This document shows positions 8,540 to 63,551 of a DNA stretch of 64,000 bases, one piece after another. The notes beneath the pieces are model-generated. The model made no database searches. It worked only from the letters and a program-made list of their open reading frames with translations, and was not told the origin of the DNA. The stretch's first letter is position 1. Every line of letters begins with the position of its first letter. The stretch spans positions 32,001 through 96,000 of the IMG/VR virus record IMGVR_UViG_3300028840_002420, one strand, 5' to 3'. The stretch is from a virus. The translations under genes were made by a program, and so were the position numbers.

Positions 8540-11362
8540 ATGTCCGATAACGTGCACAAGGCGGTCGTCGATGCCATCGCGGAGGAAGACAACGATATCG
8601 GTGGGCAGCTGATCACGCGGCTCCGAGAAGCGACTGAGTTCGGCCGGGATAACGGCTCAGTCTTGGCGTCCGCTCCGACTGTCCTGACAAGCCCTGTAGA
8701 CGTTTTCGTTGCGGGTGATGCTGGAAGGGGCATCGACATCATCGAGCCTATCTCAGGCGTCGCCAGCGGCAACGAGGGCAGCTATATCATCGATACGGTC
8801 ACCGACTCCAAGAACGTGGTGCTGACCAAAATCGATGCTTCGGCTCCATCATTTACCGATCAGGATCCGGTCCGCTGGAGGTTTACCACGATCCGCGTGG
8901 AGACCACGTGGGAGTTTCCCGATAACGATCGGCTGATGCAGTTGTGGATCGGCGACGAGCCGGACGCTTGTCCGTATGCCGAGCTGGACAACTCGCCGGG
9001 CGCTCAAGAGATCCGCGGGCTGGGCGGTCACCGGCTGATCATGGACGGAGTGATCGACAGTGGGGCCACCACGACGTTGACCACGGTTGATGATCGGTTT
9101 ACGTCGGCCGATGTTGGGAAAGCGGCCTGGGTGCTGCCGAAGGACACGGCCAACGGCAACGAGGGTCCGCAGCTGATCACGGCGTTCGTCGACTCTAAAA
9201 ACGTGACTGTGAGTCCGGGAGGCCTGTCTGCGGATGAGACTTCCGCACGGATCGTGATCAAGTCCTACGAGGGCGATGGCTATATGACGGACCGCAGTCC
9301 GCGAGCTGCGCCGCTGTCAAAGTCCTACCATCGGCTGTTGACGGAGGTCATCGACGCAAGCGGCAGCTACAGCGCGTTGGACAGGCTGCGCCGGGCGATG
9401 CTCGTGGACTATGCGACAGAAGAGGAGCTCGATCGCGTCGGCCGTAACCTGGCGGTCATCCGGCCGCGGGGCCTGGACGATGAGCACTTCCGATGCCTGA
9501 TCAAAAACATGGCCTATCTGCCCAAGGCGACCAACTACGGGATAGAGCTGGTGCTCGAGTGCCTGTTTCCAGGGGGCGGTTGGGAGCTGTACGAAGATCT
9601 GGTCAACTTCCCGAACAACGTCTTTATCATCCTGCCTGAGATGGCCGGCGACTCGGAGGTGTACGAAGGTAAGACCTTCTTTTCGCCGAGCGGAAACACG
9701 ACGGCTCCGGCCGTCATTGATCCACCTGGCCGCGGCGGGCGGGAGCAGCAAACTTCCAGTTCCGCAACCTCGGTGACGGTGACGCACGACATTATCACGG
9801 TCGTCGATGTGCTGCTTGCGGACAAAGACGACACGCTGGATATGGACGTGCTGCCCAGTGCGGACACGCCGGCTTGGACGTTCAATGCGGAATCCGCTGG
9901 AGCCGAGGGCAACACGTTCGCGGTCGTCAATATCTCGGGCTCGCACAACGTGCTGCAGCACACGCCGGACACTCCGCCGTCGGCCGCTGGCGGCCATTAC
10001 AGCCGGGTGATCAACGCGATGGATGTTCCGGAAGGCTCGGTTGTCCGCATCGGAAGCTGGTTCCGCAGAACAGCACAGTCGGTGATCAACGGGCGGCCGT
10101 GGATGCTGGCGATCAAGCACAACGGGATCGACAAAGAGGTCTATCTGCGTTGGAGCGATACGGACATCGCGTTGACCAACAGTACCGGATCTATTCCGGC
10201 TGGGGCTCCGGCTGCGGAAACGATCAGCCTTCCGCTTGGGGAGTGGCATTATCTCGAGCTGGCCGTGTGCGTTGCGGAAAAGGGCGATTTCGCTCGAGCG
10301 AAGCTCGACGGCCACGATCTGTTCGGCGCGGTCAATCTGTATCCGTTCAGTTCCGCAACAGCCAACGAATGTGCGTTTGGCTACGAAGATCTGGGCTCCG
10401 GAAACCAAAACTGGACCGTGCAGTGGGATGAGCTGCGGACGTACGTGCGGAATCAGCGGAATCACTTCAATCGGCTGTCCAATGCCGCGTTGACGGGAGG
10501 CGGTTCCGCAAACCTGGTCGATTCGACAGCTCCGTTTGTCGCCGGCGATGCAGGCAAGCTGATCCGAGTCAGCGGTTACGAGCGGGTTGCGGACACGTTC
10601 GTTCACCGCAACAGCGGGATCTGGAAGATCGGCACGTACATCAGCACAACCACGGTGGCGCTCACTGGTGTCCAGCGCGGACCGAACGGAACAGGCGCCG
10701 GCGACGATATCGCCACCCAAGGCGCTACAGTATCCGGGGCCAATGCGGACGTGACTTCCGCAGACCGTCCGGGCTCGGGCGAGGGGGCGATCATCGAGAT
10801 TCCGGAAGGCGATGCTGGGATCTTCCGCAAAGAGGACGGGCCGACTGTGCTGGACAACAGTATCGGCGGCTACAATCCGCTTTCTGGCGGCTCGGGCGAC
10901 GGTAAGACGATCGTCATCAGCAACTCGGGCTCGGGCAACGATGGGGATTTTCCGATCATCGAGGTGCTCGACGATCGGCGGGTCCGGGTAGACGCATCAG
11001 CGCTCGGAGCTGGGGGCTTTACCTCAGAGACCGGGTTGAGCTGGAAGTTCAAAGAGACGCTGTTTGCGGCGACGGTGGGCAACACCGATTACGAGATTAT
11101 CGACAAGGGTAGCTTTGCGGCTAAGGTGTTGACGTTGGGCGACAGCTTGCCGTCCGCAACCGAGGACGTGGAGATCTGGTACACATCGGTGCTGTCCGCA
11201 CAGATCCTCCGCAATGAATTCGTGGTCAACGATGGTTCGGGCGGTTCGGAGCCGAACATCTATTATCCGGCCTACATATTTGACGTGGATCGCGCCACCA
11301 GGCAGATTCTGGACGATATCACCGCAGCGGGCGTGATCCCTGAATACGCACGCGTGTTCTAA
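8540..11362 (+). CDS. Baseplate wedge/tail protein with inserted beta-rich (lectin-like) domains
   Basis: Core AMLVDYATEEELDRVGRNLAVIRPRGLDDEHFRCLIK and terminal ILDDITAAGV are typical of the wedge subunit that follows baseplate J. Confidence 0.75.
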   Translation: MSDNVHKAVVDAIAEEDNDIGGQLITRLREATEFGRDNGSVLASAPTVLTSPVDVFVAGDAGRGIDIIEPISGVASGNEGSYIIDTVTDSKNVVLTKIDASAPSFTDQDPVRWRFTTIRVETTWEFPDNDRLMQLWIGDEPDACPYAELDNSPGAQEIRGLGGHRLIMDGVIDSGATTTLTTVDDRFTSADVGKAAWVLPKDTANGNEGPQLITAFVDSKNVTVSPGGLSADETSARIVIKSYEGDGYMTDRSPRAAPLSKSYHRLLTEVIDASGSYSALDRLRRAMLVDYATEEELDRVGRNLAVIRPRGLDDEHFRCLIKNMAYLPKATNYGIELVLECLFPGGGWELYEDLVNFPNNVFIILPEMAGDSEVYEGKTFFSPSGNTTAPAVIDPPGRGGREQQTSSSATSVTVTHDIITVVDVLLADKDDTLDMDVLPSADTPAWTFNAESAGAEGNTFAVVNISGSHNVLQHTPDTPPSAAGGHYSRVINAMDVPEGSVVRIGSWFRRTAQSVINGRPWMLAIKHNGIDKEVYLRWSDTDIALTNSTGSIPAGAPAAETISLPLGEWHYLELAVCVAEKGDFARAKLDGHDLFGAVNLYPFSSATANECAFGYEDLGSGNQNWTVQWDELRTYVRNQRNHFNRLSNAALTGGGSANLVDSTAPFVAGDAGKLIRVSGYERVADTFVHRNSGIWKIGTYISTTTVALTGVQRGPNGTGAGDDIATQGATVSGANADVTSADRPGSGEGAIIEIPEGDAGIFRKEDGPTVLDNSIGGYNPLSGGSGDGKTIVISNSGSGNDGDFPIIEVLDDRRVRVDASALGAGGFTSETGLSWKFKETLFAATVGNTDYEIIDKGSFAAKVLTLGDSLPSATEDVEIWYTSVLSAQILRNEFVVNDGSGGSEPNIYYPAYIFDVDRATRQILDDITAAGVIPEYARVF

Positions 11363-11372
11363 GGAGCTTCAG

Positions 11373-13004
11373 ATGGACCGACTCAAGATTTACCCGAACG
11401 AGCGCCTTGGTTTGCCAGACGCGGAGGATGCTCTGGGAGGTAAGCTCGTTCTGGACGAGAACATTCGACGTGGCGAGGTCCTGTGGCTACCGACGGGGCG
11501 TACCACGGGGCAGGCAGCCGCTTCGGCTCGTATCTTCGGAGGGTTCGATTTCGCATCGAGTCCGGTGGGCAATGCGACGGCCACGCTCAACGCGGGGACA
11601 GGGATCTTTCCGTATCTCGACGGCAGCGATCTGAAGTTCGGGGTTCTCAACGGCGAGCAGGATCCAGCGAGTCAGATCCTCGATTACAGCTCGGAGCCGG
11701 ATGACACCTACGCGGTCTATGTCCGCGCGGTCTACAATCCCGCGGAAGTCCAAAACCGCGTGTTCTGGAATCCGAGCGGCTCTCCAGCTGCGGAGTACGT
11801 CGACAACATCTCGACGAGGGATGTGGCCACCTGGGAGGTGATCTCGCAGGATGCGGATGCGTCTCCGCCAGGTAACGGCGAGTGGGTGAAGATCTACGAG
11901 ATAACCGTGGTCTCCAACCTCATCACGGCGGTCACCGAATTCCGCCATTTCTTCTTCGAGGGATCGGCGCACGCGACTGATGCCTACGCTCAAGAGTGGG
12001 GGGACGGCGCGAACGATCGAAGCAATGATCGGACGCTGGCTCCGATCACGGACATGCACCGATTCGTGCAGTTCGTGCGGCGCCAATTTTCGGACATGAT
12101 CGACGGAGCGAATCACTGGAAGGATCCATTGAAGCGGCACGCGACGGCTCTGCACGTCGCGGGCAACGCTCAGCATTCCGCAGCTCCGACGAACGCTCGA
12201 AACCTCGTGGTAGACGCAAGCGGTCTGACCTATCCGGTATCGATCGAACAGAACCTGTTCACGGTGGTCGATGGCTGGGGCCGGCGCTGTTACGCTTGGG
12301 AAACCAGCGGCCGGTTGGCACGGCCTCCACGATTCTTTGATGATTTCACGCAATATGGATCGGCGTGGGCTGACCATACAACAGAGCCTTATGGCTACAC
12401 AGCGACACGGACCAACACAGGGGATGTATTCATCGCGCTATCAACAGCGCAGCAGGCTGAAAATGGGTGCGTTCGGCTAACTTGCAATGGAGGGGATACG
12501 GCGGATCTTGTCGGGCCCTATCCAGGGTTTTTCGTAGATCCAGCCAAAGGACGTTGGCGTTTTGCCGCTCGAGCGAAGGTCGATTGGGGCACGATTGGAG
12601 CCACAATATTCCGCATTGGTCTGACTTCCGCAGCGTGGGGTTTGTACTTTGACGTAGATCCGGCGACGTACGGCGATAACGATTGGAGGATCGCTGGTAC
12701 CGATGCAGCTTTGCCAGTCAATACTAGCTTCGGAGTGGATGATACGGGGCCTCCAACGAATTGGTTCCTATTCTATCTGTGGGTGGTCGATGCGACCACG
12801 ATCGGCTGGGCAATTCATATCGAAGACGCTCCGACGTATGAAGCCAAAGGAACAATTACGGTAGCGTCGCTGACAGGCAATGCGAATTCGTTACAATGCC
12901 TTGCGGTCGTTCAATCGAGCAGTGGTATCAGCACGATGAATATCGATTGGTGGGAAATGTGGGGCGACAAAGCATCGGGCATGGGGATCAACGTTCTTCC
13001 GTAG
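11373..13004 (+). CDS. Tail fibre/spike-like structural protein with C-terminal beta-sandwich
   Basis: SD AAGGAG; structural-module position; C-terminal FFDDF...NIDWWEMW lectin-like pattern with lower GC. Confidence 0.65.
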   Translation: MDRLKIYPNERLGLPDAEDALGGKLVLDENIRRGEVLWLPTGRTTGQAAASARIFGGFDFASSPVGNATATLNAGTGIFPYLDGSDLKFGVLNGEQDPASQILDYSSEPDDTYAVYVRAVYNPAEVQNRVFWNPSGSPAAEYVDNISTRDVATWEVISQDADASPPGNGEWVKIYEITVVSNLITAVTEFRHFFFEGSAHATDAYAQEWGDGANDRSNDRTLAPITDMHRFVQFVRRQFSDMIDGANHWKDPLKRHATALHVAGNAQHSAAPTNARNLVVDASGLTYPVSIEQNLFTVVDGWGRRCYAWETSGRLARPPRFFDDFTQYGSAWADHTTEPYGYTATRTNTGDVFIALSTAQQAENGCVRLTCNGGDTADLVGPYPGFFVDPAKGRWRFAARAKVDWGTIGATIFRIGLTSAAWGLYFDVDPATYGDNDWRIAGTDAALPVNTSFGVDDTGPPTNWFLFYLWVVDATTIGWAIHIEDAPTYEAKGTITVASLTGNANSLQCLAVVQSSSGISTMNIDWWEMWGDKASGMGINVLP

Positions 13005-13013
13005 GAGAGTTCG

Positions 13014-13460
13014 ATGGACAGCAAAAATATGACCAAAGTGGGGGATGTCGGAAATTTCGGGGTCCTGATTGACGGGCCTTCTCGCGACTTCATCATCGCG
13101 TTGGAGACAGATTTGGGGACTGTCGCGGGGGCGTTGAGCCCGGAAGATGCACTGCGGCTCGGAATTCTCCTGATCCGTGAGACCGGAAAAAGGCGTATAT
13201 TCCATCCGAACGCTCAAGAAAAGCCGGCAATGACCAGGCCACAGCCTGGAAAGGAGAAGACCGATGCGAGCAATCTTGACGACCACAGTGGTGCTGCTGA
13301 TCCTGACAGCGCTGGCGATGGGGCCGACCCTCGCACAGAACGACGCGAGCCCGAATCCAGTAGACCAATCGATCTCAGTGAAGGACTCGGGGGCGGCAAC
13401 GGACGCGAAGCCAGCTGGAGACCCCCCGTTACCGCCGAAGGATCTCAAGGGGGCGGCTGA
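13014..13460 (+). CDS. Hypothetical protein; 3' 197 nt overlap the next gene
   Basis: SD AGGAG; protein-like N-terminal ~65 aa. Confidence 0.5.
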   Translation: MDSKNMTKVGDVGNFGVLIDGPSRDFIIALETDLGTVAGALSPEDALRLGILLIRETGKRRIFHPNAQEKPAMTRPQPGKEKTDASNLDDHSGAADPDSAGDGADPRTERREPESSRPIDLSEGLGGGNGREASWRPPVTAEGSQGGG

Positions 13461-13773
13461 GCAGGCCAAAGCCGCGATTGCCGCAGCCAAAGAAGGCCGG
13501 TGGTGGTATTTCTCTGCGTTGATCGTGATGCTGGTGATGTTCCTGCTCAAGTTCGCCGGGACGAAGATCGGATCGTGGTGGCCGAAGCTCGGAAGGTGGC
13601 GCTACGTCATTGCACCTGTGCTATCTCTGGCGGGCGCGCTACTGGCGGCTTTCCAGGGAGGGGTGAGTATCGACACGGCGATCACGGTGTTCACCAGCTC
13701 GTACGCAACGCCAGCGTTACAGGAATTGTACGAGCATGGGATCCTCGGTAAGCCGCACAGCGGCGGCGGCTGA
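13264..13773 (+). CDS. Membrane protein, holin-like
   Basis: SD AAGGAG; signal-like N-terminus plus 2-3 hydrophobic helices; upstream of the spanin pair. Confidence 0.6.
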   Translation: MRAILTTTVVLLILTALAMGPTLAQNDASPNPVDQSISVKDSGAATDAKPAGDPPLPPKDLKGAAEQAKAAIAAAKEGRWWYFSALIVMLVMFLLKFAGTKIGSWWPKLGRWRYVIAPVLSLAGALLAAFQGGVSIDTAITVFTSSYATPALQELYEHGILGKPHSGGG

Positions 13774-14297
13774 TGGGCTCTGAGGATGTGACACCCGTCG
13801 AGGTTCCGCAGCCGTCTGAGAGGCCTCCAGCTCCTCCTAAAAACGGCCGCTGGAAACACTGGGGCGCCAAGGTTACCAAGCTGGTTGCGGCGGCTGCTAC
13901 GGCGGCTGCTGCAGCCTACGGGGCCACCAAGCCGGAAGCCGAAGGCCAGCGGGCGCAGATCCAGGTTGAGGCGAGCTATCGTGAGCTGACGCAGCAGGTC
14001 GCGCGGCTGCAGCGGTGGGCTCGAGCCAATCGGGACCGGGCCAAGGCTGCGGAAGCCGCTTGCCGGGCGGAAGTGGCCTCGCTGCAGGCCTTCACCAGCG
14101 GGTTCCTTCTGGGGCAAGCTGGCGGCCGTAGGAGCGCTCGAGCGAGCCGGGGTAGTAACGGCGGTCCGGAGGCTGTTGAAGCGCTGGTCAAGGCTCTGCG
14201 GGCTCAGCAGAAGGCAGCAGCGGCCAAGGTGTCGCGGACCAAGCTGCCGCGGCTCAAGCCGTCCGCGAAGAACGTTAAACAACTTCTCGACAAGTAG
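13773..14297 (+). CDS. Basic coiled-coil protein with Ala-rich hydrophobic segment (lysis cluster)
   Basis: TGATG coupling. Confidence 0.6.
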   Translation: MGSEDVTPVEVPQPSERPPAPPKNGRWKHWGAKVTKLVAAAATAAAAAYGATKPEAEGQRAQIQVEASYRELTQQVARLQRWARANRDRAKAAEAACRAEVASLQAFTSGFLLGQAGGRRSARASRGSNGGPEAVEALVKALRAQQKAAAAKVSRTKLPRLKPSAKNVKQLLDK

Positions 14298-14306
14298 AGG
14301 TATTTC

Positions 14307-14627
14307 ATGGGCATTGCGATATCCGCGGGTGCCGGGCTTCTGCTCGGGCTCGGTCTGTTGATTTGGGGTCTGAGAGAGCGCAGTAAGCGCCACGCGGCCG
14401 AGCGGGCTGTTGACGCGGCTGAAAGGCTGAGAGATCAGGCAGTTGAAACGGCGAATCACAATGCGGTACACGCTGCGGAGATGGAAGATTACGCCGGCCG
14501 GTTGAACAAAGCGGTCGAGCTCCATCGGACGCGGCTCGCGGAAGTTCGAGAGCTGCTCGCCAAACACGCCTCGATCAAGACCATTCGCGAGCTGCTTGCT
14601 ACGGAGGGGGAGGAGGAAGAGATATGA
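14307..14627 (+). CDS. Putative inner-membrane spanin (Rz-like)
   Basis: Single N-terminal TM helix followed by coiled coil; overlaps the lipoprotein gene. Confidence 0.65.
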   Translation: MGIAISAGAGLLLGLGLLIWGLRERSKRHAAERAVDAAERLRDQAVETANHNAVHAAEMEDYAGRLNKAVELHRTRLAEVRELLAKHASIKTIRELLATEGEEEEI

Positions 14628-14962
14628 AAGCTAGTATTTTTGTACTAGTAGCACTGCTATCTGGCTGCTGCTGGCTGTCAAAGCGGAGCTGCTTTCCGAA
14701 GTGCCCACCACAGCTGGCCGCGGAGGTGGTCAAGATCGAAAAGCCGTGCGAGCTGCCGCGGCTGAAGCTACCCGCGTTCAAGGAAACGGTGGAAGGCTGC
14801 CCGGAAGACCGGGTGTGCTTTGATCGGGCCAATTCCGGGGCGCTCTATACGCGGTTGGCGCGGCTGAAGGACTTCGCCAAGATAGCTCGAACGCGCTGTG
14901 CAAAGCCGTTACCCACAAGCCAGCCGGCCAGCAAACCTGCGACATCACAGCCGACGCAGTAA
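14624..14962 (+). CDS. Putative outer-membrane spanin lipoprotein (Rz1-like)
   Basis: Lipobox LLSG-C; Pro/Cys-rich; ATGA overlap with the Rz-like gene. Confidence 0.7.
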   Translation: MKASIFVLVALLSGCCWLSKRSCFPKCPPQLAAEVVKIEKPCELPRLKLPAFKETVEGCPEDRVCFDRANSGALYTRLARLKDFAKIARTRCAKPLPTSQPASKPATSQPTQ

Positions 14963-15256
14963 CGGTCCCCAGGCTGTCCCCAGCTGTGGATAGAATGGCG
15001 GTACGCAGCAAGCTATACGCGCCTATACGCGGTCTATCTGCGGCTGGTTGTCACGTCTTTGGGTGTGCCGCTGCGGCTACACTCGAACGCCCGTGATTTT
15101 GGGGTGTTCGGCGCGCGTGACAGGGCCGCTGCGGTTTGGGTGTCACGGTTCCGCGTATAGAGAGTAGGAGCACGCTGCGGGTGCGGCTACCGAGGCAATC
15201 CCAAGGTAGGCCACAAACCATGCCCCAGATGGCCGCTGGAGTGGCGTGCTCCGCTA

Positions 15257-15285
15257 TTGACATCCGAGGTCAATCCGATCATGGT
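15257..15285 (+). promoter_or_regulatory. Sigma70-type promoter upstream of the tRNA cluster
   Basis: TTGACA-17 nt-CATGGT; the -10 is weak. Confidence 0.45.
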
Positions 15286-15371
15286 GGTGGGCATGAGATC
15301 GCGAATTCGACGACTCTTGTATCTCCTGCGCTAGCTGCCCGGTCGGGGCGGCCAGAATCCATGTACAATTT

Positions 15372-15445
15372 GCTGCGGTAGGCTAATTGGCAAAGCCAAC
15401 AGGTTTAGGCCCTGTGTACTGAGGGTTCGAGTCCCTCCCGCAGTA
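15372..15445 (+). tRNA. tRNA-Leu(TAG), short variable loop
   Basis: Acceptor GCTGCGG/CCGCAGT; anticodon arm ACAGG-TTTAGGC-CCTGT; T arm GAGGG-TTCGAGT-CCCTC; A73; no CCA. Confidence 0.88.
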
Positions 15446-15447
15446 AA

Positions 15448-15532
15448 GGGAGTGTGCGCGAATGGCTAAGCGTCCCGACTGTAAATCGGTGGACGGCTCA
15501 GATCCGTGGAGGTTCGAATCCTTCCGCTCCCA
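15448..15532 (+). tRNA. tRNA-Tyr(GTA)
   Basis: Acceptor GGGAGTG/CGCTCCC; loop CTGTAAA; long variable arm; T arm GGAGG-TTCGAAT-CCTTC. Confidence 0.92.
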
Positions 15533-15534
15533 AA

Positions 15535-15609
15535 GGCTGGGTAGCCCAACTGGAAGATGGCTACGGCTTCAAACGCCGTGAGATGAGGGTTCGAATCCCT
15601 CCCCAGCTA
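15535..15609 (+). tRNA. tRNA-Leu(CAA), short variable loop
   Basis: Acceptor GGCTGGG/CCCAGCT; ACGGC-TTCAAAC-GCCGT; T arm GAGGG-TTCGAAT-CCCTC. Confidence 0.85.
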
Positions 15610-15682
15610 GAGCCCGTAGGCTAACAGGAAACGCCGGCCGGCTTAAACCCGGTGGTTCTGGGTTCGACTCCCAGCGGGCTTA
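15610..15682 (+). tRNA. tRNA-Leu(TAA), short variable loop
   Basis: Acceptor GAGCCCG/CGGGCTT; GCCGG-CTTAAAC-CCGGT; T arm CTGGG-TTCGACT-CCCAG. Confidence 0.88.
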
Positions 15683-16258
15683 TCCAGTGAAGGTGGCGAA
15701 GTCCGTATCGACAGTCACGCCAAGGATCGGCCGCTTGCCGTTGTCCTGAGCTTCGTCGACCGTGGTATCGCCGGTGCGGTCCAGCGTGCACTCGCCGATT
15801 TTGATCCATTCGTTGCCGGCGCCGACGGCCGTCTGGATCTCGGTATCGGTCGGGGCGACTTCGCTGCCGGTGAGCGCGGGGGTGCCTTTTACGATGACCT
15901 GGGACACAGTGCCGGCGACGTTTTTCAGCACGATGGCAGCTTTGCAGCTGTTGCCGTCCGCAAGGCCTGTGAGGAATGATCCGCTGTGGATCGCCACATC
16001 GGCTTGAGCTGCGGATTCGAACGCGACCCCATTGACGATGGCGGCGAGCGCTTCGATGTCCACATTCCACGTGGTGTTACCCGTACCGGTGAGCTGGCTG
16101 CTGCCCGTGGTCGGGTCTTTGAGAAGCCCCCCAGCTAGGATCTTGTTGGCCTCGTGGGTTTTGATCTGGTTGAAGTACTTCGCGACGGCGTGAGTCTGGT
16201 GAGCGAGATCGCTCGGGTCCAGATCGACATCGGTCGGGGTTGCGCTTCGTCCGCTCAT
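15680..16258 (-). CDS. Hypothetical protein with virion-structural-like composition (192 aa)
   Basis: SD GGAGG; Thr/Gly/Ala/Val-rich; codon usage consistent with a real gene. Confidence 0.75.
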   Translation of the reverse strand: MSGRSATPTDVDLDPSDLAHQTHAVAKYFNQIKTHEANKILAGGLLKDPTTGSSQLTGTGNTTWNVDIEALAAIVNGVAFESAAQADVAIHSGSFLTGLADGNSCKAAIVLKNVAGTVSQVIVKGTPALTGSEVAPTDTEIQTAVGAGNEWIKIGECTLDRTGDTTVDEAQDNGKRPILGVTVDTDFATFTG

Positions 16259-16306
16259 TAGAATCCTCCGTGTGTTGGAATGCGAGCAGAAAGGTACTAG
16301 GCGTGG

Positions 16307-56181: not shown

Positions 56182-56381
56182 TGGCCGATCGATTGGTTGG
56201 AAACCGTTGCGCTCCGCGGCGTGCGTACGGAGATTGGCTCGAGCGCGAGCACGATCCGCTCCGTGATGAGAGCAAGGTCATCACGCTGCGGAATGTTCCG
56301 GGGCTGCCCGATGGCGATTACGTGGTGTGCATCTGCCGGCACTGCGGAAGCCTTTACGTGCAGCACATCAGTGACCTATGA
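56181..56381 (+). CDS. Small Zn-ribbon protein
   Basis: TAATG coupling; CRHCG. Confidence 0.5.
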   Translation: MADRLVGNRCAPRRAYGDWLEREHDPLRDESKVITLRNVPGLPDGDYVVCICRHCGSLYVQHISDL

Positions 56382-56608
56382 CGAAGAACAGAGTGTGGTT
56401 CCGGTTCGATCATCCGCTGACGATCGGCAATCCGCTGATCAGCGAACAGACCGGTAAGCAGATCGGGACGATCGTGGGCTGCTACCTCCACCCAGAGGGA
56501 CATTACGAGGTCGAATGCCGGGTGGACGAAGAGACCTACCAGAAGCTTGCGGAAGCTCACAACCGCGGCCATAGCATCGGGGCCGTTGCGGAAGGGAAGT
56601 TGAACTGA
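56378..56608 (+). CDS. Hypothetical protein
   Basis: Coupled. Confidence 0.55.
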   Translation: MTKNRVWFRFDHPLTIGNPLISEQTGKQIGTIVGCYLHPEGHYEVECRVDEETYQKLAEAHNRGHSIGAVAEGKLN

Positions 56609-57114
56609 TGGGGAGCCGATGTAGGGGGCAGTGTTGCCAGGCGTTCGTGTTGGGTGGGTACGATCTCGAGTACATCCAGCGTTCGTACGACAACACGATC
56701 CGGATGTGGCTGGGCGAGGACTTCGGGTGGACGAAGCCGGAAGGCTGGCTGCCGACGCTGGTCAACGGGATCTTCAGGTGGTGGCCGTGGATGGTTTACC
56801 TGGGGCGGTTCAAGGCTCATCCGGTGACGGGCGCCGAGCACCAAGAGATGGACTATTTCACTTGCTCGCAGTTTTCGGAGGAGGGCAATTGCTTGGTCTA
56901 CGATCGCCGTCCGCATTTCTGCCGGACCTACGGGATCACGACGCCCTGTGAGCACGAGGGCTGTCAGTGGGCCGGAGCCTGGAAGAAAGGTGAGCCTGCT
57001 CCTGTCAGTAGCCCGGAGATGCGGAAAGCTCTGATGGATGAGGTGCAGGAAGTGGATGTGGAGCCGATAGACGTGCTCGGGAAAGATGAGGTGGTTCAAC
57101 CATGGCAAACCTGA
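56608..57114 (+). CDS. YkgJ-like Cys-cluster (Zn/Fe-chelating) protein
   Basis: CRGQCC...C......CLVYDRRPHFCRTY. Confidence 0.8.
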   Translation: MGSRCRGQCCQAFVLGGYDLEYIQRSYDNTIRMWLGEDFGWTKPEGWLPTLVNGIFRWWPWMVYLGRFKAHPVTGAEHQEMDYFTCSQFSEEGNCLVYDRRPHFCRTYGITTPCEHEGCQWAGAWKKGEPAPVSSPEMRKALMDEVQEVDVEPIDVLGKDEVVQPWQT

Positions 57115-57320
57115 TGGCGTGCAAGATCCCAGGCTGCCCGAACACGATGACGTTTTCGGCCTACAATGTGCGGCCGATCTGTAACGAACACTGGCAACAG
57201 TTGCCCGAAGAGCTGAAAACAGAGATACTGCTGGCACGGCACGAGGGGCCGCGAAGAGTCGCGCAGACGTTGACCGCAGCTCAGCGGGTGTTGACGGAGA
57301 GAAAAGATGCAGGGGTTTGA
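57102..57320 (+). CDS. Small Zn-finger protein
   Basis: CKIPGC...CNEHWQQLP. Confidence 0.6.
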   Translation: MANLMACKIPGCPNTMTFSAYNVRPICNEHWQQLPEELKTEILLARHEGPRRVAQTLTAAQRVLTERKDAGV

Positions 57321-57597
57321 TCTCAAGAACGACCAGCCGGAGATTCCGGAGCACTTCAAGGCGCTCTGCCAGGGGCGGATGGTTCGCTACGTCCATCCAA
57401 GCGGTGTGACGCGGCCGGCTGTGGTGGTCGATGTCGTCGACCAGGGGCTGGGCCTGGTCGAGCTCCAGGTATTTGCCGGCGAGGGTTTGGCGATGGCCTC
57501 GTACATCGATGAGACGACGGGTCGAGCTGGCGTGTACGAATACGACGCCAAGGGCGTTGCCGCGAACAGCTGGCATTGGCCTCCGCGCCAAGGTTGA
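57307..57597 (+). CDS. Small phage protein (GRMVRY...PAVV...WHWPPR)
   Basis: Common SH3-like phage motif. Confidence 0.7.
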   Translation: MQGFDLKNDQPEIPEHFKALCQGRMVRYVHPSGVTRPAVVVDVVDQGLGLVELQVFAGEGLAMASYIDETTGRAGVYEYDAKGVAANSWHWPPRQG

Positions 57598-57601
57598 GAC
57601 C

Positions 57602-57850
57602 ATGGCCCGGCTGTCGGCCAATCAGGAGATCCTATTGCTGCTGATGATCGATGAAGCGGACCGCTGGTGGACCGCGGCAGCCGCTCGAGTTCGGTGGCCG
57701 ACAGATAGCGCTCCGAATTGCGTAGCGCTCGGAATAGCGCTGCGCGGGCTCTGGAGCCGGGGGTTGACGCATCGGGAGCATGGGCCTCCATCATCGTACC
57801 GATTGAACCACGGCGGAAAGCTGGCCGCGAAGGAGCTGAAGAATGGCTGA
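57602..57850 (+). CDS. Winged-helix protein
   Basis: LSANQ...L..RGL.....YRLNHGGK. Confidence 0.55.
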   Translation: MARLSANQEILLLLMIDEADRWWTAAAARVRWPTDSAPNCVALGIALRGLWSRGLTHREHGPPSSYRLNHGGKLAAKELKNG

Positions 57851-58088
57851 CAGGCCGAAATATTATCCGTTCATGCCGGTCCAGCTCGAGACGATGGACG
57901 GTCATCGTGTAGTGACGGCGTTGATCCCGCCGTTTCAGTCGTTGCCCGAAGTTGTGTCGTGGGGAACGCGGACGTTCAAGCTTCATGCTGATCCGCAGGA
58001 TAGCTACGCGCCGATCGTCTATCGAGAAGTGTTCGCTGTGGCGATTGTGATGACGGTGGACGAATACGCGGGGTCCGCAGATGCGTGA
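57843..58088 (+). CDS. Hypothetical protein
   Basis: SD AAGGAG. Confidence 0.65.
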   Translation: MADRPKYYPFMPVQLETMDGHRVVTALIPPFQSLPEVVSWGTRTFKLHADPQDSYAPIVYREVFAVAIVMTVDEYAGSADA

Positions 58089-58371
58089 TCGATTCCGTGT
58101 GGACGCACAGGTGCTCGGTGAGGAGTGTTCTTTGGGGACGCTCACCATTTACGGCGAGACGCTCGAAGACGCCATGGTGAGCGTGCTGGGGCTGCTGACA
58201 CCGCACATTCACGAAGGAGCTGCGGTTCAGATCCTTGGGACGGGTGTGTTCTGCGACGAATGCCGAGCTTACCATCCGTGCACCGATCGGCTACTTCAGA
58301 AGCACTCTGCTGATGAGGTTGAAGCGGAGGAAGCTCCGCCTCTGCCAGCTCCGCCCAACGGTTTCAATTGA
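58081..58371 (+). CDS. Hypothetical protein with Zn ribbon
   Basis: CDEC..HPC. Confidence 0.55.
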   Translation: MRDRFRVDAQVLGEECSLGTLTIYGETLEDAMVSVLGLLTPHIHEGAAVQILGTGVFCDECRAYHPCTDRLLQKHSADEVEAEEAPPLPAPPNGFN

Positions 58372-58595
58372 TGAGGCTGTGGCCTTGGGCACGTAGGCCG
58401 CGATGCTGCAGGCGCGCGGTCAAGATCATCTATGCCGGGCTGCCAGGCCGCTGGTGTCCGCGGTGTGGAAGGCTTAGCGGTCCCGCGTGTTGGGCCGCTC
58501 AGATATTCTTCACGGGCTGGATGATGACCTACACCGGTAGCTACTGGCTGGCGCTGTGGGAGTGGTTGCGGAATTCCGCATCGAATGCGGAATAG
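58368..58595 (+). CDS. Small Trp/Cys-rich protein
   Basis: Coupled; CPRCG. Confidence 0.5.
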   Translation: MMRLWPWARRPRCCRRAVKIIYAGLPGRWCPRCGRLSGPACWAAQIFFTGWMMTYTGSYWLALWEWLRNSASNAE

Positions 58596-58628
58596 AGGGT
58601 TGACAGTGCGGAGAGTCTCCGCTACCTT
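58567..58628 (+). promoter_or_regulatory. Sigma70 promoter with TGCGGA operator-like boxes
   Basis: TTGACA(58600)-17-TACCTT; palindrome TGCGGAATTCCGCA at 58567; boxes at 58586 and 58607; spacer palindrome GCGGAGA-G-TCTCCGC. Confidence 0.75.
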
Positions 58629-58666
58629 CTAATTATCGCTTCGGCGATTCACCAAGGAGACTCACG

Positions 58667-59065
58667 ATGACGACCGAATCTACCATTATCGCAAAGCACG
58701 GTGGCCTCTCTTGGGAAGCCGGAACCTGTGATGCCGGTCCGTATTACCTCAACAACCGGTGGATGATCTTTGCCAGCTTTGGTACTCGGAGCTTGGCAAT
58801 CAGTCGGCCGGGTAGTGTGTGGCAGCGCGAAGCGTTTGAGACTTCGCGGGCCGCATTTGAAGCCTGTAAGTTGGTGCTTGATCCTGAGTGCTATAACGCC
58901 GAAGAAATCCGGCGCGTGGTTCGGGTAGCTACTGTTGCTGCTCGGGCGGAGTGGAAACGGTTCGGCGAGACAATCGGGCGGATCGGTGGTTCTAGCGCTG
59001 TTGCGGCGTATCACGCTGCAACTCTTGATCGGGTGTGCAAAAAGTTGGAAGGGGGCTCCCGATGA
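58667..59065 (+). CDS. Hypothetical early protein
   Basis: SD AAGGAG after the promoter. Confidence 0.65.
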   Translation: MTTESTIIAKHGGLSWEAGTCDAGPYYLNNRWMIFASFGTRSLAISRPGSVWQREAFETSRAAFEACKLVLDPECYNAEEIRRVVRVATVAARAEWKRFGETIGRIGGSSAVAAYHAATLDRVCKKLEGGSR

Positions 59066-59382
59066 AGTCCGATAAAACGGTGTTCCCGCTCGAGCCGGGC
59101 GAGCTGACCAAGATCTTGGAGCGTGGGATCACTGAGGCCGATCGGCGCGGTCCGACGCTGAACCCTTCCTACAATGAGCTGCTGCGTCACTGGGCGGCAA
59201 CCGGACACCCGACCGATCCGCAGTGCGAGATCTGCGGAAAGGACGTGACGGGGCTGGACATCCACGATAGCGGCTACGATTGGCGCTGTGATGACTGCCA
59301 GGATGATCCGGTGTTCTGCACGGACGAAGACGATCGTGCGGAGCGGTTCTACTTCTCACCCAGGGAGCCGGCCAGTGACTAA
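59062..59382 (+). CDS. Zn-finger hypothetical protein
   Basis: CEIC...CDDC. Confidence 0.6.
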   Translation: MKSDKTVFPLEPGELTKILERGITEADRRGPTLNPSYNELLRHWAATGHPTDPQCEICGKDVTGLDIHDSGYDWRCDDCQDDPVFCTDEDDRAERFYFSPREPASD

Positions 59383-60013
59383 GCGATACCGTTGGAGCTG
59401 CGAGGGCGGTCATCCGGGCGTGTTGGCGCCGGGAAGGCTCCGCAAGGTGGACATTCGGCGTTATTGCTGGGAGTGCTCCAAGGCCGCGGGTGTGCTGGTC
59501 GAGCGGACGTGCGGAGTGCTCGAGGCCAAGCGGGCGGCCAAGGCCGAGCGTCGGGTAGCCAAGCGCGCGAAGGCCTCGGAGAAGCGCAAGGCTGCGGCAG
59601 CCGTCTATCCAGGGATCATTCACGAGCTGTTCCGCAAGTGGAAGCGGTTGCGGGCGTGGGACTGCCCGGACCGTATCAAGCGGGCCAAGCTTCGCAGTAT
59701 GCGGCGTCGGCGAGCGGGGGAAGAATCGACGGGGACGTGCTGGGGCGGTGGGATTCCGTCGATCACGTTGACGGTTGGGACGGACGCTGCAGATGGCTAC
59801 GCTACGTTGCTCCACGAGCTGGCTCACGCGGGTTGTGTTGTCGGGGAGAGTCACGGGTCCGCGTGGCGCACGACGTTTCTGGAGGCTGCTGAAGAGGTCA
59901 CAGGCGAAAAGCTGACGCCGTGTTTCGTCTCGAGTTGCCACGATGTTCACCGAGCCGTGCGGACGGCATTCGAGCGGATGATCGAGCGTGGCGACCTTCC
60001 AGGGAGGGTGTGA
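59375..60013 (+). CDS. SprT-like zinc metalloprotease
   Basis: TLLHELAH...HGSAW. Confidence 0.75.
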   Translation: MTKRYRWSCEGGHPGVLAPGRLRKVDIRRYCWECSKAAGVLVERTCGVLEAKRAAKAERRVAKRAKASEKRKAAAAVYPGIIHELFRKWKRLRAWDCPDRIKRAKLRSMRRRRAGEESTGTCWGGGIPSITLTVGTDAADGYATLLHELAHAGCVVGESHGSAWRTTFLEAAEEVTGEKLTPCFVSSCHDVHRAVRTAFERMIERGDLPGRV

Positions 60014-60459
60014 TGCAGCTCGAGCTGGATTTTGGGCGGCCATTCGAGAATGAGGAGCTGCACTGGGTGACGGGTTGCCGGCCGGATTATTCCGCTCAGC
60101 CGATGGCTCAGTACACCATCATGATCCGTGCGGATGATGATCCGGAGCGGAAGCCGCGGCCGAAGGGCGGTCAGAAGGATCGTCGTCCGCATCTGACGAT
60201 CGCCAAGTGGTCGATCGAGGACATCAAGGCTAAGCTGCTCGAGCACTTGTCAGACGGCGAGCCGCGGACGTTCAACCGGATCGGTATCGAGCTGTGGGAC
60301 AAGGGCGGAGACCTGCTAGCAGGGACGAAAGTGGAGGAAGCTCTGTGGGAGCTGGTCGAAGAGTACGAAGTAGGGTGTACGGTCCGGGCGCCGATCCGGT
60401 TCGTGGTGAATCTGGAATGGCGTTGGGACCACGAGCGGAAGGAGTGGGTTGAGCGATGA
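60013..60459 (+). CDS. Hypothetical protein
   Basis: TGATG coupling. Confidence 0.65.
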   Translation: MQLELDFGRPFENEELHWVTGCRPDYSAQPMAQYTIMIRADDDPERKPRPKGGQKDRRPHLTIAKWSIEDIKAKLLEHLSDGEPRTFNRIGIELWDKGGDLLAGTKVEEALWELVEEYEVGCTVRAPIRFVVNLEWRWDHERKEWVER

Positions 60460-61016
60460 TGTGCCTGGGTCAAATACGAAAAGCCGCCGCGGAATGTGTG
60501 ACGTGCCTAGAACGAGAGCGTTGTGCGGCGATTGCGGAAAGCAGGGCGAGTGCCGTGGATGATCAAGTAATGACAAGGCGACAAGTTTCGATCTTGATCG
60601 CCCTCGATGAAGACGAGTGGTTTGCCCCAGCGGAAATTCGAAGGCGGGTTGTCGAAGGGAGGGGTGGGGGCGTTCATTCAGCGCTGCAATCCGGAATCGG
60701 TTGGGGGTGGGTAGAGAAGCATGAAACGCGTTATCGGCTGACTGCTAAAGGCCGAATGGTTTTAGAGCGATCGATTAAATATTATGGCGACATGATGCGG
60801 GCTGGTGAGGACATCATCAATCAATTTGTTGCGGCAGCCGTTGCGGACTGGCTGTACGAGCGGCGTGACTGGACCGCGGAAGATGCCGCATTGGAGGCCT
60901 CCGATTTTATCGTGAAGCGGTCGGGGTCGCGCGGGGACTTTGAGATGCAGTCGCGGCTGACTGAGTATCTTCTCGATCGTTTTGAAAAGCGCGAAAAGGC
61001 GGCCGATGGCACTTAG
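60456..61016 (+). CDS. Winged-helix-containing protein
   Basis: MTRRQVSILIAL...YRLTAKGR. Confidence 0.6.
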   Translation: MMCLGQIRKAAAECVTCLERERCAAIAESRASAVDDQVMTRRQVSILIALDEDEWFAPAEIRRRVVEGRGGGVHSALQSGIGWGWVEKHETRYRLTAKGRMVLERSIKYYGDMMRAGEDIINQFVAAAVADWLYERRDWTAEDAALEASDFIVKRSGSRGDFEMQSRLTEYLLDRFEKREKAADGT

Positions 61017-61245
61017 GAAGTATCAGATTCGTGGTCTGCGGAAGCTTCGAGAGCTGGCGAATTTCGAGCGGGCTCATTTCGAGAGGATCGGGGTCGGTGT
61101 GGATGAAAAGCTGCCTGTGCTCGAGTCGGAGGTGACGGCGTTCATCAAAGAGCGGACGCGTCTTTATCGCCAGACGTGGGTATTGCCGCTGATTGATGCG
61201 CTGTTGCGCGGAGATGTCGAGGCCGTGAACAGGAAGTGTGATTGA
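61006..61245 (+). CDS. Hypothetical protein
   Basis: IKERTRLYRQTWV.PLID motif. Confidence 0.6.
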   Translation: MALRKYQIRGLRKLRELANFERAHFERIGVGVDEKLPVLESEVTAFIKERTRLYRQTWVLPLIDALLRGDVEAVNRKCD

Positions 61246-61550
61246 TGCTCAACGATAAGACGATTGGCGTGTACTACCTTGGCTACGGGCTCGAGCCGTC
61301 GCGAGAGCCGGAAGAGCACGAAGAGATCATCTGCGTGCCGAAGGACGGCCAGGCGGTCGAGGAAGCAGCCAAGGAGATGCTTCAGGACGTGATGGCGATC
61401 CATCTGGAAGGGGGTTTGCCTGGACCGGTACGGTTCGGCAAGCTGGTTTCGCTGTTCACCGAAGCGCTCAAAGCTGTGGAGCTCGAGCCGGTAGACAGCA
61501 GTGACCGCGGGCATTGGTTCGTTCTGCGGTGGGAGGAAAGGACAAATTGA
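61245..61550 (+). CDS. Hypothetical protein
   Basis: Coupled. Confidence 0.6.
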   Translation: MLNDKTIGVYYLGYGLEPSREPEEHEEIICVPKDGQAVEEAAKEMLQDVMAIHLEGGLPGPVRFGKLVSLFTEALKAVELEPVDSSDRGHWFVLRWEERTN

Positions 61551-62038
61551 AGATTCCGAGGACTGATTGGGACACCTACTGGATGCTGCTGGCACACCTG
61601 ACGGCGACACGGAGCACGTGCGATCGGGGGCCGGAGCTGCTGTTTGACCCTGGACGGCGAGGCGTCGGTGCGGTGCTGGTCCGGGACAAGCGGATGATCG
61701 CGGGCGGCTACAGCGGCTCTGCTCCAGGACAGCCGCATTGCAGCGATGCGGACCATCTGATGGTCGAGGGGCATTGTGTGCGGACGCTGCATAGCGAGGT
61801 CAACGCGATTCTGCAGTGCGCGTTGGATGGAGTCTCTCCGGCCGGAGCGGCGCTGTATTGCACGGCCAGTCCGTGCTTCGACTGCGCCAAGGCGATCATT
61901 CGGGCTGGAATCGTTCGAGTAGTCTACGGAAGCCCTTACGATTCACGGTATGGCTTGAGCGGCGGTGTGGGGGCGATGCTGACTAAGGCTGGGATCGCTG
62001 CAGAAGAGCTTGCCCTACAGCGGAGCGACTTCGAGTAA
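61547..62038 (+). CDS. dCMP deaminase
   Basis: WDTYWM..A...ATRSTC.R..VGAVLV..GYSG..HC...HSEVNAI...SPCFDCAKAII.AGI. Confidence 0.92.
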   Translation: MKIPRTDWDTYWMLLAHLTATRSTCDRGPELLFDPGRRGVGAVLVRDKRMIAGGYSGSAPGQPHCSDADHLMVEGHCVRTLHSEVNAILQCALDGVSPAGAALYCTASPCFDCAKAIIRAGIVRVVYGSPYDSRYGLSGGVGAMLTKAGIAAEELALQRSDFE

Positions 62039-62047
62039 ACTGGCGCG

Positions 62048-62908
62048 GTGGAGCGGCAAGCAACAGCACGGCGGCGAGCGCTGATCGATCAGGCTTTGGC
62101 GGCATTGCCCGAGCAGGCGAATCCTACCGAAGGGCCTCCAGAGGGTTCAGTTCGGCGTCATGGTTGCGAGTATGAGAGCAAGTGCATCACAGTCGCTACG
62201 GCCGGGACCTGGAGGGCTTTGTCATGTGCGGAATGCGAGCTGCGAGCGGTGCCCGTGGATTGGCACAAGGTCGCGACTCCGCCCCGTGGCGGTCAGACCT
62301 GGATCGACGAACAGGACGGAATCAGGAATCGGGATGTCGGGCCCTTGAAAGCCGCGTTGGATAAGCAGCCGGTCGCTCGGGGGTCCAGTTGGAAAGACGA
62401 GCAGGTGAAGACGAAAAAGCAGGCGCCTACGAAACCCGTGGAGGAATCGATGTCGAGAGCCAAGAGCGTGTTTGAAATGCTGCCCGATGCCGCGCGGCCG
62501 ATCATTGGAGAGGCCGTAGGCTCAAGCGAGAGCCGTTTTGCGGAGTGGTACGCAGCGTTGAAGAAGGCCTGCCCGAAATCGCAGCTCGGAAGCGCTGCAG
62601 CGTTCAGGATGTGGATTTTGGGGCAACGGCGGAAGCGCTCGGGCAAACCGGCGCGGCCGGCAACGAACAACACCGGGCGGAAGGCCCCGACCAAGAAGGT
62701 GAAGGCCAAGAAGGCGAAGGCTGTCACGGTCACACAGCCGCCGCTGGTCAAGCCCAAGAAGCGGAAAGCCATTCCGAGTGCTGATCGGTCGCCGTCCGAG
62801 CTGGCGCAGCGGGCAGTGACGATCGTCGAGGCCATAGCGGATTTGACGGAGGACGAACGCTCGAGAGTGATCGGCTCCGTTAACCGTCTGCTCGCAACAG
62901 ACGGCTAA
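62048..62908 (+). CDS. Basic hypothetical protein with N-terminal Cys cluster; could be two domains or start at 62450
   Basis: Long ORF; internal SD GGAGG-ATG. Confidence 0.55.
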   Translation: MERQATARRRALIDQALAALPEQANPTEGPPEGSVRRHGCEYESKCITVATAGTWRALSCAECELRAVPVDWHKVATPPRGGQTWIDEQDGIRNRDVGPLKAALDKQPVARGSSWKDEQVKTKKQAPTKPVEESMSRAKSVFEMLPDAARPIIGEAVGSSESRFAEWYAALKKACPKSQLGSAAAFRMWILGQRRKRSGKPARPATNNTGRKAPTKKVKAKKAKAVTVTQPPLVKPKKRKAIPSADRSPSELAQRAVTIVEAIADLTEDERSRVIGSVNRLLATDG

Positions 62909-63108
62909 GCCGCGGCGACGTTCCGCACGGGTACCATCTCCTCCAAGCACTCACCACAGTAAGCCACCCCACCATCGAATTGACGGCCGGACGCAATCTC
63001 ATCTGTGGAGAAAATGAGCGGAGTTGAGGGCTTACACCCGTTCGGGCATACCGCTACAGCGTCGTGGACCGCGCACCATTGCGCGTATGTTCGAATTGCT
63101 CGTTTCAT
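62905..63108 (-). CDS. Small Zn-ribbon protein on the minus strand
   Basis: CPNGC...CGEC; convergent stop overlap. Confidence 0.5.
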   Translation of the reverse strand: MKRAIRTYAQWCAVHDAVAVCPNGCKPSTPLIFSTDEIASGRQFDGGVAYCGECLEEMVPVRNVAAA

Positions 63109-63117
63109 GGGTCCAGG

Positions 63118-63237
63118 TCCGCATCTGCCTACATCTTGATCGCTGATTGCGGAATGTCAAGGGATGCGGGTGTTTACGATTGCGGAATTCGTTTTCTGCG
63201 GAATAGGGGTTGCAAAGTGCGGAGTCGCGGTCACCAT
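63118..63237. promoter_or_regulatory. Divergent control region with five TGCGGA boxes
   Basis: Boxes at 63118 (reverse), 63148, 63181, 63197 and 63218; TTGCAA -35-like box lies between the last two. Confidence 0.6.
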
Positions 63238-63271
63238 GATCAGTGCCTTTGGGCGAACCCAGGAGACTCAG

Positions 63272-63517
63272 ATGACGGCGGAAGAGGATCGCGCGTTCGA
63301 GCAGGATCAGATCATGTCGTGGGCAAGGAAGTTGTGGCCTCGTACTTCGCAGCTCCGGCCAATCAAGACGTTTTCGTCGATTTGCAACGGGCAGCAGTGG
63401 TACATGGTGCTGTCCGATAGCGGAAACAAGCTGGCGATGGCGTTTTTAGACCCGACAAATTTCTTGCCGTGGTTTCAGCCGGTCGGGTCGACGGAGCCCG
63501 ACGAGTGCGGAGGGTAG
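63272..63517 (+). CDS. Hypothetical protein
   Basis: SD AGGAG. Confidence 0.6.
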   Translation: MTAEEDRAFEQDQIMSWARKLWPRTSQLRPIKTFSSICNGQQWYMVLSDSGNKLAMAFLDPTNFLPWFQPVGSTEPDECGG

Positions 63518-63551
63518 TGCAAATAATGCGGAGTGGTGTAACATCTGCGGA

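Follow-up and report, generated by a model that had tools for sequence, protein, structure and literature searches.

Short DNA words repeated through a genome are known from several systems. Stoperators (Cluster A mycobacteriophages, L5 gp71) are asymmetric words of 13-14 bp, present about 24-36 times per genome in temperate phages with a known repressor. They lie mostly in short intergenic gaps with their orientation following transcription, and the same word is also a true operator at the early promoter, an arrangement thought to give genome-wide transcriptional control. The DNA uptake sequences (DUS) of Neisseria and the uptake signal sequences (USS) of Pasteurellaceae are words of 9-12 bp in bacterial chromosomes, kept by biased uptake and recombination through the competence machinery. 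Chi sites (RecBCD/AddAB) are a property of the host genome and are strand-skewed relative to replication, the AddAB forms being AGCGG in B. subtilis and GAAGCGG in S. aureus. Sites of the parS type are about 16 bp long, few and clustered. In phage T4, MotA boxes occur only at promoters, where they take the place of the -35 element and are recognised by a factor that the phage encodes. Here we describe the hexamer TGCGGA, with its complement TCCGCA, in a phage genome that consists of a single 113,207-bp contig (IMG/VR record IMGVR_UViG_3300028840_002420) with ~60% GC and ~141 genes, almost all on the + strand. The record gives direct terminal repeats and 100% completeness; the exact terminal repeat found here was 144 bp. 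The window, that is the whole stretch of 64,000 nucleotides analysed, comprises bases 32001-96000 of this contig, and coordinates are those of the window unless stated otherwise. Genes were called with a simple codon-usage caller made for the present analysis. A sequence-only reading of the same DNA had proposed that the hexamer forms a distributed binding or marking code of a stoperator-, parS- or Chi-like kind, or a methylation target. The element under study is the following:

1..64000, both orientations: dispersed TGCGGA/TCCGCA core sites, in all frames and in intergenic DNA, 221 in the window

The 221 sites compare with 57.2 +/- 8.2 in dinucleotide-preserving shuffles of the window, none of 100 of which reached the observed number, and 213 of them lie within 9160-63551. 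Over the genome 383 sites were counted (232 on the + strand, 151 on the - strand), or 3.38 per kb, against 73.8 expected by base composition, an observed-to-expected ratio (O/E) of 5.2. The local counts made by hand in the sequence-only reading were exact (19 in 9160-10830, 5 in 16686-16758, 12 in 42590-43300 and 5 in 63118-63223), its eye-estimated GC content of ~60% matched the measured value of about 0.60, and the dipeptide contexts it had listed were found again: Ser-Ala (39), x-Ala-Glu/Asp, x-Pro-Gln and Phe-Arg-x. The word was a top-three outlier under a Markov model of order 4 in every 20-kb chunk of the genome. It was specific at all six positions, with each of its 18 one-base neighbours at an O/E of 2.4 or less, and one of them, TGCGCA, was depleted to 0.24 (18 vs 74). 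A literature search for the word returned nothing relevant.

Codon choice was considered next to these counts in three null models. The excess had a z of 17-19 under a synonymous-codon shuffle and of 17-20 under codon permutation; the synonymous shuffle was exceeded 2.6x and 3.5x in the two orientations, and all six frame-and-orientation classes were enriched 2.2-9x over it. Two other words, GCTCGA/TCGAGC and GAGCTG/CAGCTC, are as abundant as TGCGGA, and all three survived these shuffles with z of 10-21. The dicodon-preserving (codon-level Markov) null had been named beforehand as the test that could overturn the claim. Under this null the enrichment stayed, with 185 copies of TGCGGA vs 91.1 (z 9.8) and 81 of TCCGCA vs 44.0 (z 5.6), and these two words ranked first and second among 4096 hexamers, followed by the overlapping words TTGCGG, CCGCAA and TTCCGC. 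GCTCGA and GAGCTG dropped to an O/E of 1.0-1.6 under the same null and are therefore explained by codon-pair bias; GAGCTG is also recurrent in relatives. The earlier argument that codon bias is insufficient thus holds, both from the enrichment of all six classes and from the excess that persists in the dicodon null. The conclusion that the signal resides in the double-stranded DNA, and not in the proteins, is supported.

The enrichment rose with the length of the motif, from 8.5x for TTGCGGA and 11.5x for TGCGGAA to 20x for TGCGGAAT, and the 9-mer TTGCGGAAT was present in 25 copies in the genome vs 0.6 expected. The consensus is about tTGCGGAAt, with TGCGGAA as the half-site and no information past ~10 bp. 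The intergenic share also rose: the hexamer, at 9.1%, matched the proportion of the genome that is intergenic, and the 7-mer reached 10.7%, the 8-mer 20.7% and the 9-mer 24%; within intergenic DNA, TGCGGA is the most enriched hexamer of all (35 vs 6.6 expected). In addition, the perfect 14-bp palindrome TGCGGAATTCCGCA occurs twice in the genome, vs 0.057 expected from the half-site counts. The two copies are 12.3 kb apart and both are intergenic; the second, at window-equivalent position 70876, falls beyond the window and precedes the large terminase gene by 170 bp. The long forms in the window that stand outside the promoter cassettes described below are:

58566..58580, no strand assigned: first copy of the perfect 14-bp palindrome TGCGGAATTCCGCA, inside TTGCGGAATTCCGCA, intergenic
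17695..17727, - strand: pair of TTGCGGAAT, 24 bp apart, intergenic, directly upstream of a promoter of a second class (class II), GCTACA-N16-CATAGTAG, at 17736

Three promoters (58586, 63197 and window-equivalent 65342) have the layout TGCGGA(A/T)TAG-G-rich-TTGACA or TTGCAA-(0-2 nt)-TGCGGAG. In each of these cassettes two TGCGGA sites stand 21 bp apart, which is two helical turns, and bracket the -35 box:

58586..58670, + strand: cassette 1, TGCGGAATAGAGGG-TTGACA-G-TGCGGAG, a 17-nt spacer, TACCTT, a small hairpin, the leader CACCAAGGAGACTCA and ATG
63148..63275, + strand: cassette 2, TTGCGGAAT at 63147 and 63180, then TGCGGAATAGGGG-TTGCAA-AG-TGCGGAG, a conserved leader and ATG at 63272
window-equivalent 65342, beyond the window: cassette 3, arranged like cassette 2
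63506..63551, + strand: weakly cassette-like fourth element of three more sites (63506, 63527, 63546), with TGCAAA between the first two, which are 21 bp apart

Alignment showed the three cassettes to be paralogous promoter-leader modules that have the hairpin and the leader CACCAAGGAGACTCA in common; both TGCGGA blocks are invariant, while the neighbouring spacer bases vary. Extra sites are present upstream, the palindrome and two copies of TTGCGGAAT being among those of cassettes 1 and 2. The class II promoters and the promoter of the tRNA genes are without the TGCGGA bracket and mostly without the word. A scan for the sigma-70 consensus returned no promoters, since the -10 boxes of this phage read CATrGT or TACCTT, and a leader/ribosome-binding-site probe against viral contigs gave 42 chance matches and no related cassette.

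The palindromes and the -35 brackets are built on the very hexamer that stands out most in the coding DNA, which would be a surprising coincidence if no single agent recognised both. The reading that we favour, tentatively and just short of calling it probable, is that TGCGGA is a word, particular to this phage, that a sequence-specific DNA-binding protein recognises at operators of early-type promoters and at ~380 dispersed core sites. The high-information forms would be operators: the two 14-bp palindromes would fit a dimer, and the 21-bp-spaced pairs around the -35 of the three paralogous sigma-70-like promoters would be operators as well, where binding would either block host RNA polymerase or recruit it. 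The same core would have been driven to ~380 copies in coding and non-coding DNA, mostly via codon choice, and these dispersed cores would form a dense field of weaker half-sites for the same protein. Occupation of such half-sites might shut the genome off globally, act as a roadblock, compact or mark phage DNA, or titrate a host factor, and the reader would be expected to be enriched on TTGCGGAATTCCGCAA and on TGCGGA-dense DNA. The statistics, the sequence specificity, the architecture of promoters and palindromes, and the lack of such a bias in relatives and sampled bacteria are observed directly; a protein reader, its sharing by dispersed and promoter sites, and the effect of its binding are our inference. 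The operator-like long forms at promoters lend support to the binding code of the sequence-only reading; its specific analogies (stoperator, parS, Chi) find none. A wider version is possible but doubtful, namely a lineage-private word system in which one reader serves strong composite operators together with ~380 weak cores loaded by selection on synonymous codons. In that system the DNA of the phage, which may be of the lytic type, would be recognisable or controllable by its site density, for self-marking, genome-wide shut-off, compaction or sequestration of host factors.

The load of sites differs between genes. Relative to gene length the gene-to-gene spread of TGCGGA gave a chi-square per degree of freedom of 2.65, compared with 1.36 and 0.87 for control words; six large structural genes are at about 1x, and the ORFan at 8540-11362, which has the densest load outside repeats, is at 6.5x. 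The genes and gene groups in question are:

8540..11362, + strand: 940-amino-acid ORFan gene, 22 sites (7.8 per kb) vs 3.4 by synonymous shuffle, 19 of them in 9160-10830
16634..16867, - strand: small lipoprotein-like gene that has Asp-Ser-Ala repeats and 5 sites, the 9-mer TTGCGGAAT accounting for three
28310..29791, + strand: gene for a protein like single-stranded DNA-binding protein (SSB), with Pro/Gln/Gly/Tyr tandem repeats, 22 TCCGCA sites
42029..44860, + strand: four consecutive genes, for a clamp-like processivity factor (phrog_947) and three ORFans, with 26 sites over 2.8 kb

The SSB-like gene had been described as carrying the hexamer in every unit of its repeat. This is correct for the C-terminal array of 15-bp/12-bp units (29440-29760), which contains 17 sites derived from repeat amplification, and incorrect for the N-terminal array, which is mostly TCCACA and has 2 sites in 28310-28520. 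The repeats of this gene contribute 22 of the 383 genomic sites. It is one of two adjacent genes dominated by tandem DNA repeats, the other being the H1-like gene at 26696-27715, with 15-bp units. Longer repeat families bearing the word were looked for and were limited to the SSB tandem array and one 20-nt triplet; the latter, TCGATTCCGCAAAGCTGGCC, is a near-identical repeat at 17369, 17716 and 42670, two copies being coding and one lying just upstream of a class II promoter. Clustering of sites was modest, with 55 nearest-neighbour distances of 30 bp or less vs 33 expected. Pairing of the word with its complement in hairpins was rejected, the counts of convergent, divergent and direct pairs fitting random orientation.

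Several observations weigh against a protein reader. The cassettes are paralogous copies of one module and so amount to roughly one independent observation. The bare hexamer is evenly spread, with equal densities in coding and intergenic DNA, and no preferred spacing or helical phasing of the sites (small peaks were multiples of 3), no positional preference inside genes (chi-square 7.0, 9 degrees of freedom) and no orientation polarity along the genome (the left and right halves have + strand shares of 59% and 68%) were detected; an even spread of this kind is also expected of a global mutational or repair bias. The use of per-gene codon usage removed most of the heterogeneity between genes (chi-square per degree of freedom 1.03), a correction that is partly circular. 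Six bases by themselves are too few for specific binding, the Pfam scan was without a clear repressor and no reader was found. Lastly, a host-imposed signature is possible.

These points lead to the explanation that dispenses with a reader, in which TGCGGA is a compositional signature of context-dependent mutation or repair bias, or of codon-context pressure, exerted by the host or by the replication and repair enzymes of the phage. We regard it as unlikely, and likewise its corollary that the promoter and palindrome copies are merely built from the locally commonest word. A signature would account for the equal coding and intergenic densities, for the similar effect on all frames and both orientations, for the lack of positional, spacing or polarity structure, and for per-gene counts that fit a constant multiple of the synonymous-shuffle expectation. 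Moreover, other strong oligonucleotide biases are present in this genome, GATC being over-represented 2.75x and TCGA 2.5x and CTAG being reduced to 0.17x. It would, however, leave unexplained both the two perfect palindromes and the rise of enrichment and intergenic share with motif length. The bias of very-short-patch repair in E. coli is about 1.5-2x, not 5x, no Vsr-like gene was found in the Pfam scan, and no single neighbour word is depleted as a one-step mutational source would need.

The relatives of the phage bear on the same question. In 157 background loci (phages and bacteria) the O/E of TGCGGA had a median of 1.3, a 95th percentile of 2.4 and a maximum of 3.7. No cultured relative above ~31% identity was found for PolA, terminase or RecA, and the uncultured relatives form a clade at 45-65% PolA identity. 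Among ten relatives of this PolA clade the bias is not shared as a clade trait, the closest ones having an O/E of about 1.0-1.3, and three mildly enriched relatives are each sister to a non-enriched one in the PolA tree. The strong bias therefore arose on the lineage of this phage, and inheritance within the clade is ruled out by the tree. Such an origin on its own branch, as after a host switch, is in keeping with a signature. TGCGGA was not seen as a top Markov outlier in the relatives, and no distinct private word was detectable in any of them in the 9-22 kb examined per relative. A different word, CTCTTT/AAAGAG, was a recurrent top Markov outlier in four relatives (L004, L003, L046 and L049), with small counts (5-9 vs 1-4), and may be a regulatory motif common to the clade.

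Bacterial genomes were surveyed for a comparable bias by counting TGCGGA against a reversed-word control in ~1,060 whole genomes from five phyla, the maxima being taken by eye from the tables of results. Some of the genomes were flagged as unpublished (G388, G616, G633, G663, G697, G703, G735, G763, G789, G841, G854, G1001 and G1026), none of which was extreme or carried a claim by itself. The phage has 383 copies of the word vs 52 of the control, a ratio of 7.4. The maximum ratio was about 2.5 in 401 Pseudomonadota (about 1.0 per kb), about 2.9 in 201 Planctomycetota (1.34 per kb) and about 2.4 in 121 Rhizobiales (1.11 per kb). The 251 Actinomycetota had at most about 0.9 per kb, with ratios near 4 only in small genomes having ~0.3 sites per kb, and the best of 101 Acidobacteriota, G1002, had a ratio of 3.5 and 1.46 per kb, the highest density of the survey. 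Throughout, ratios above about 3.5 were confined to genomes with very few sites. No sampled bacterium thus comes close to the 3.38 per kb of the phage, and TGCGGA leads in no inspected genome, which speaks strongly against a compositional signature. It had been stated in advance that the same bias in the host chromosome would count against a code; no such bias appeared in the genomes sampled, a result that is strong, not final, given that the phage's own host is not identified.

Particular host candidates were rejected. G1002 does not match the phage in signature: the top word of its sampled DNA is TCCGGA, TGCGGA ranks 64th and the generic words of the phage are depleted. A host in the Rhizobiales had been suggested by the GATC/TCGA-rich background of the phage, and Allorhizobium has only 0.8 sites per kb and an O/E of 1.35. 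A search of bacterial assemblies with the ParB-methyltransferase fusion protein and PolA, for a prophage or host, found no clade member, and methyltransferase matches in plasmids were uninformative as a host clue.

The bacterial survey also bears on the possibility that TGCGGA is a Chi-like word for recombination or nuclease control, which would tame host RecBCD/AddAB or phage SbcCD/RecA for protection or for recombination-dependent replication. The word is short and asymmetric with a GCGG core as in AddAB Chi sites, its density is within the range of 5-mer Chi sites, and genes for RecA-like and SbcC-like proteins and for an SSB are present in the phage. The recognised genes of replication and recombination are those for a DnaB-like helicase, a primase, the RecA-like protein, a family-A DNA polymerase and the SbcC-like ATPase; the clamp-like processivity factor, the large terminase, an SLT transglycosylase, the SSB-like protein, an H1-like lysine-rich protein and a fusion of a ParB-N domain with a methyltransferase were recognised as well, and four tRNAs are encoded. 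Nevertheless, a Chi-like role is very improbable. There is no polarity along the genome or toward its ends, both orientations exceed the codon-aware nulls similarly, in no sampled genome is the word as over-represented as expected of a host Chi, and the palindromes and -35 brackets would be left unexplained.

The candidate readers proposed by the sequence-only reading were the following two proteins of the window, to which a third candidate was added here:

39484..40923, + strand: fusion of a ParB-N domain with an N6-N4 DNA methyltransferase, a reader proposed earlier
26696..27715, + strand: H1-like Lys/Ala/Pro-rich repeat protein (HC2, DUF2924)
63823..64146 (window end 64000), + strand: gene for a 107-amino-acid protein with a weak helix-turn-helix (HTH) signature, in the operon downstream of cassette 2

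The H1-like protein could not be upheld as a reader, as it is lysine-rich and of low complexity with no specificity domain detected. In the fusion protein the ParB-N domain (5.2e-12) has Noc, ParB and Spo0J as its best solved relatives (2e-11), and Pfam called no HTH. Its methyltransferase domain is nearest to the adenine methylases DpnA (GATC, 5e-26) and CcrM (GANTC, 1e-21), and with GATC itself so enriched, the fusion is unlikely to be the reader of the asymmetric TGCGGA; by the same homology, GATC-type methylation of the phage genome is plausible. The 107-amino-acid protein matched HTH_38 weakly (7.7e-5, below the curated cut-off), as well as Sigma70_r4_2 and HTH_23. A single-sequence AlphaFold model gave a three-helix core of low confidence (predicted local distance difference test score 63.7), too weak for a fold search, and the structural neighbours in the Atlas belong to HTH families at a TM-score of only about 0.5. 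It is the best local candidate for the reader, a reasonable if weak one, with a host protein no less possible. In Pfam scans, which covered 139 of the 141 called proteins, no repressor or integrase family was detected. A second ParB-type domain of the phage, after that of the methyltransferase fusion, is found in a 1594-amino-acid protein adjoining the terminase (genome 105152-109936; L127:9152-13936; outside the window), which has a ddrB-like domain of the ParB superfamily (9.3e-24).

The nature of the methyltransferase is also relevant to the view that a modification enzyme, of the phage or of its host, recognises TGCGGA and methylates it or marks it otherwise. Type III, Type IIG and BREX-type methylation motifs are asymmetric, as is TGCGGA, a 6-mer containing both A and C; the phage encodes the ParB-methyltransferase fusion, and its genome bears strong signs of restriction pressure. 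Palindromic 6-mers are avoided (CCCGGG 0 of 171 expected, GACGTC 0 of 74, CCTAGG 0 of 74, ATGCAT 0 of 32, GGGCCC 6 of 171, besides TGCGCA), which is a strong footprint of restriction avoidance and could help to identify the restriction-modification systems of the host. Several 7-mers are depleted under a maximal-order Markov model (CCGCCGG 2 vs 37, GGCGGAC 3 vs 33, CCTCGAG 9 vs 41, ACGACGA 2 vs 20) and may be asymmetric restriction or defence motifs. We still find a modification target improbable. Being a target does not of itself account for enrichment, since defence motifs are normally depleted in phages, and the only methyltransferase found is nearest to enzymes for GATC and GANTC, with GATC abundant in the genome and no second methyltransferase in the proteome-wide Pfam scan. 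The same palindrome avoidance suggests a further origin, in which TGCGGA, a hybrid of the palindromes TGCGCA and TCCGGA, collects escape mutations as a by-product of restriction-site avoidance. The depletion of TGCGCA and the complete absence of several other palindromic 6-mers would fit it. However, TCCGGA is itself enriched (2.4x), the ~56 missing copies of TGCGCA spread over 18 neighbours cannot yield ~310 extra copies of one of them, and the changes needed alter amino acids in most frames, so that this origin is barely credible.

Two further observations concern the promoters without the TGCGGA bracket. The class II family, GC(T/A)ACA(C)-N16/17-CATAGTAG, has five copies (17736, 26651, 44833, 49028 and 53362) and stands apart from the TTGACA class; CATAGT, its -10-like box, is similar to those of cassette 3 and of the tRNA promoter (CATGGT). 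The latter is a TTGACA-N17-CATGGT promoter upstream of a tight tRNA cluster at 15257-15682, with Leu(TAG), Tyr(GTA), Leu(CAA) and Leu(TAA).

If a protein does read the word, the genome would be an instance of genome-wide selection on synonymous sites for DNA-protein recognition, at ~1 site per 300 bp; to our knowledge, such a density is otherwise known for bacterial uptake sequences and Chi, and not for phages. With one word, three promoters and two palindromes, it would be a tractable system for viral marking or global control of a virus's own DNA, and it would show how such words arise on single lineages. The lineage-private word system, if true, would be a phage counterpart to genome marking of the DUS or Chi type. 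Should the word instead be a host-imposed signature, it would serve as a sharp host-prediction marker for this uncultured phage clade.

Comparison with the systems described at the outset shows that no known family among stoperators, parS, Chi, DUS/USS and MotA boxes fits as membership. With parS and Noc-type sites the phage has in common a perfect 14-bp palindrome in two copies and encoded proteins with ParB-N domains. However, two palindromes 12.3 kb apart with hundreds of dispersed half-sites are wrong for parS in copy number and distribution, and neither ParB-domain protein shows an HTH module in Pfam, unlike in ParB/parS. The MotA boxes are likewise a phage-specific short word at or near the -35 of a promoter class, but TGCGGA flanks an intact TTGACA and is dispersed through genes too. 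Chi is similar in being asymmetric and short, with a GCGG-type core, in its genome-wide over-representation and in its possible use as a mark of self; the orientation of TGCGGA shows no polarity or switch, which disagrees with the Chi-like reading suggested earlier, and no sampled bacterial genome shares the word. Stoperators are also a short word repeated in genes and at promoters. Here, in contrast, the core is 6 bp and present in 383 copies, of which the 9-mer makes up only 25, both orientations exceed the null though the genes are nearly all on the + strand, and no repressor or integrase was detected in the phage, so that stoperator membership also fails. The core is evenly spread, with the 8-mer and 9-mer more often intergenic. 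DUS and USS are short over-represented words in both orientations and in all frames inside genes, with inverted pairs in non-coding DNA and graded extended forms, all of which is seen here as well, although we know of no uptake drive of this type for a phage genome. By analogy, the closest statistical look-alike of the TGCGGA word is DUS/USS and its closest functional analogue is the stoperator system.

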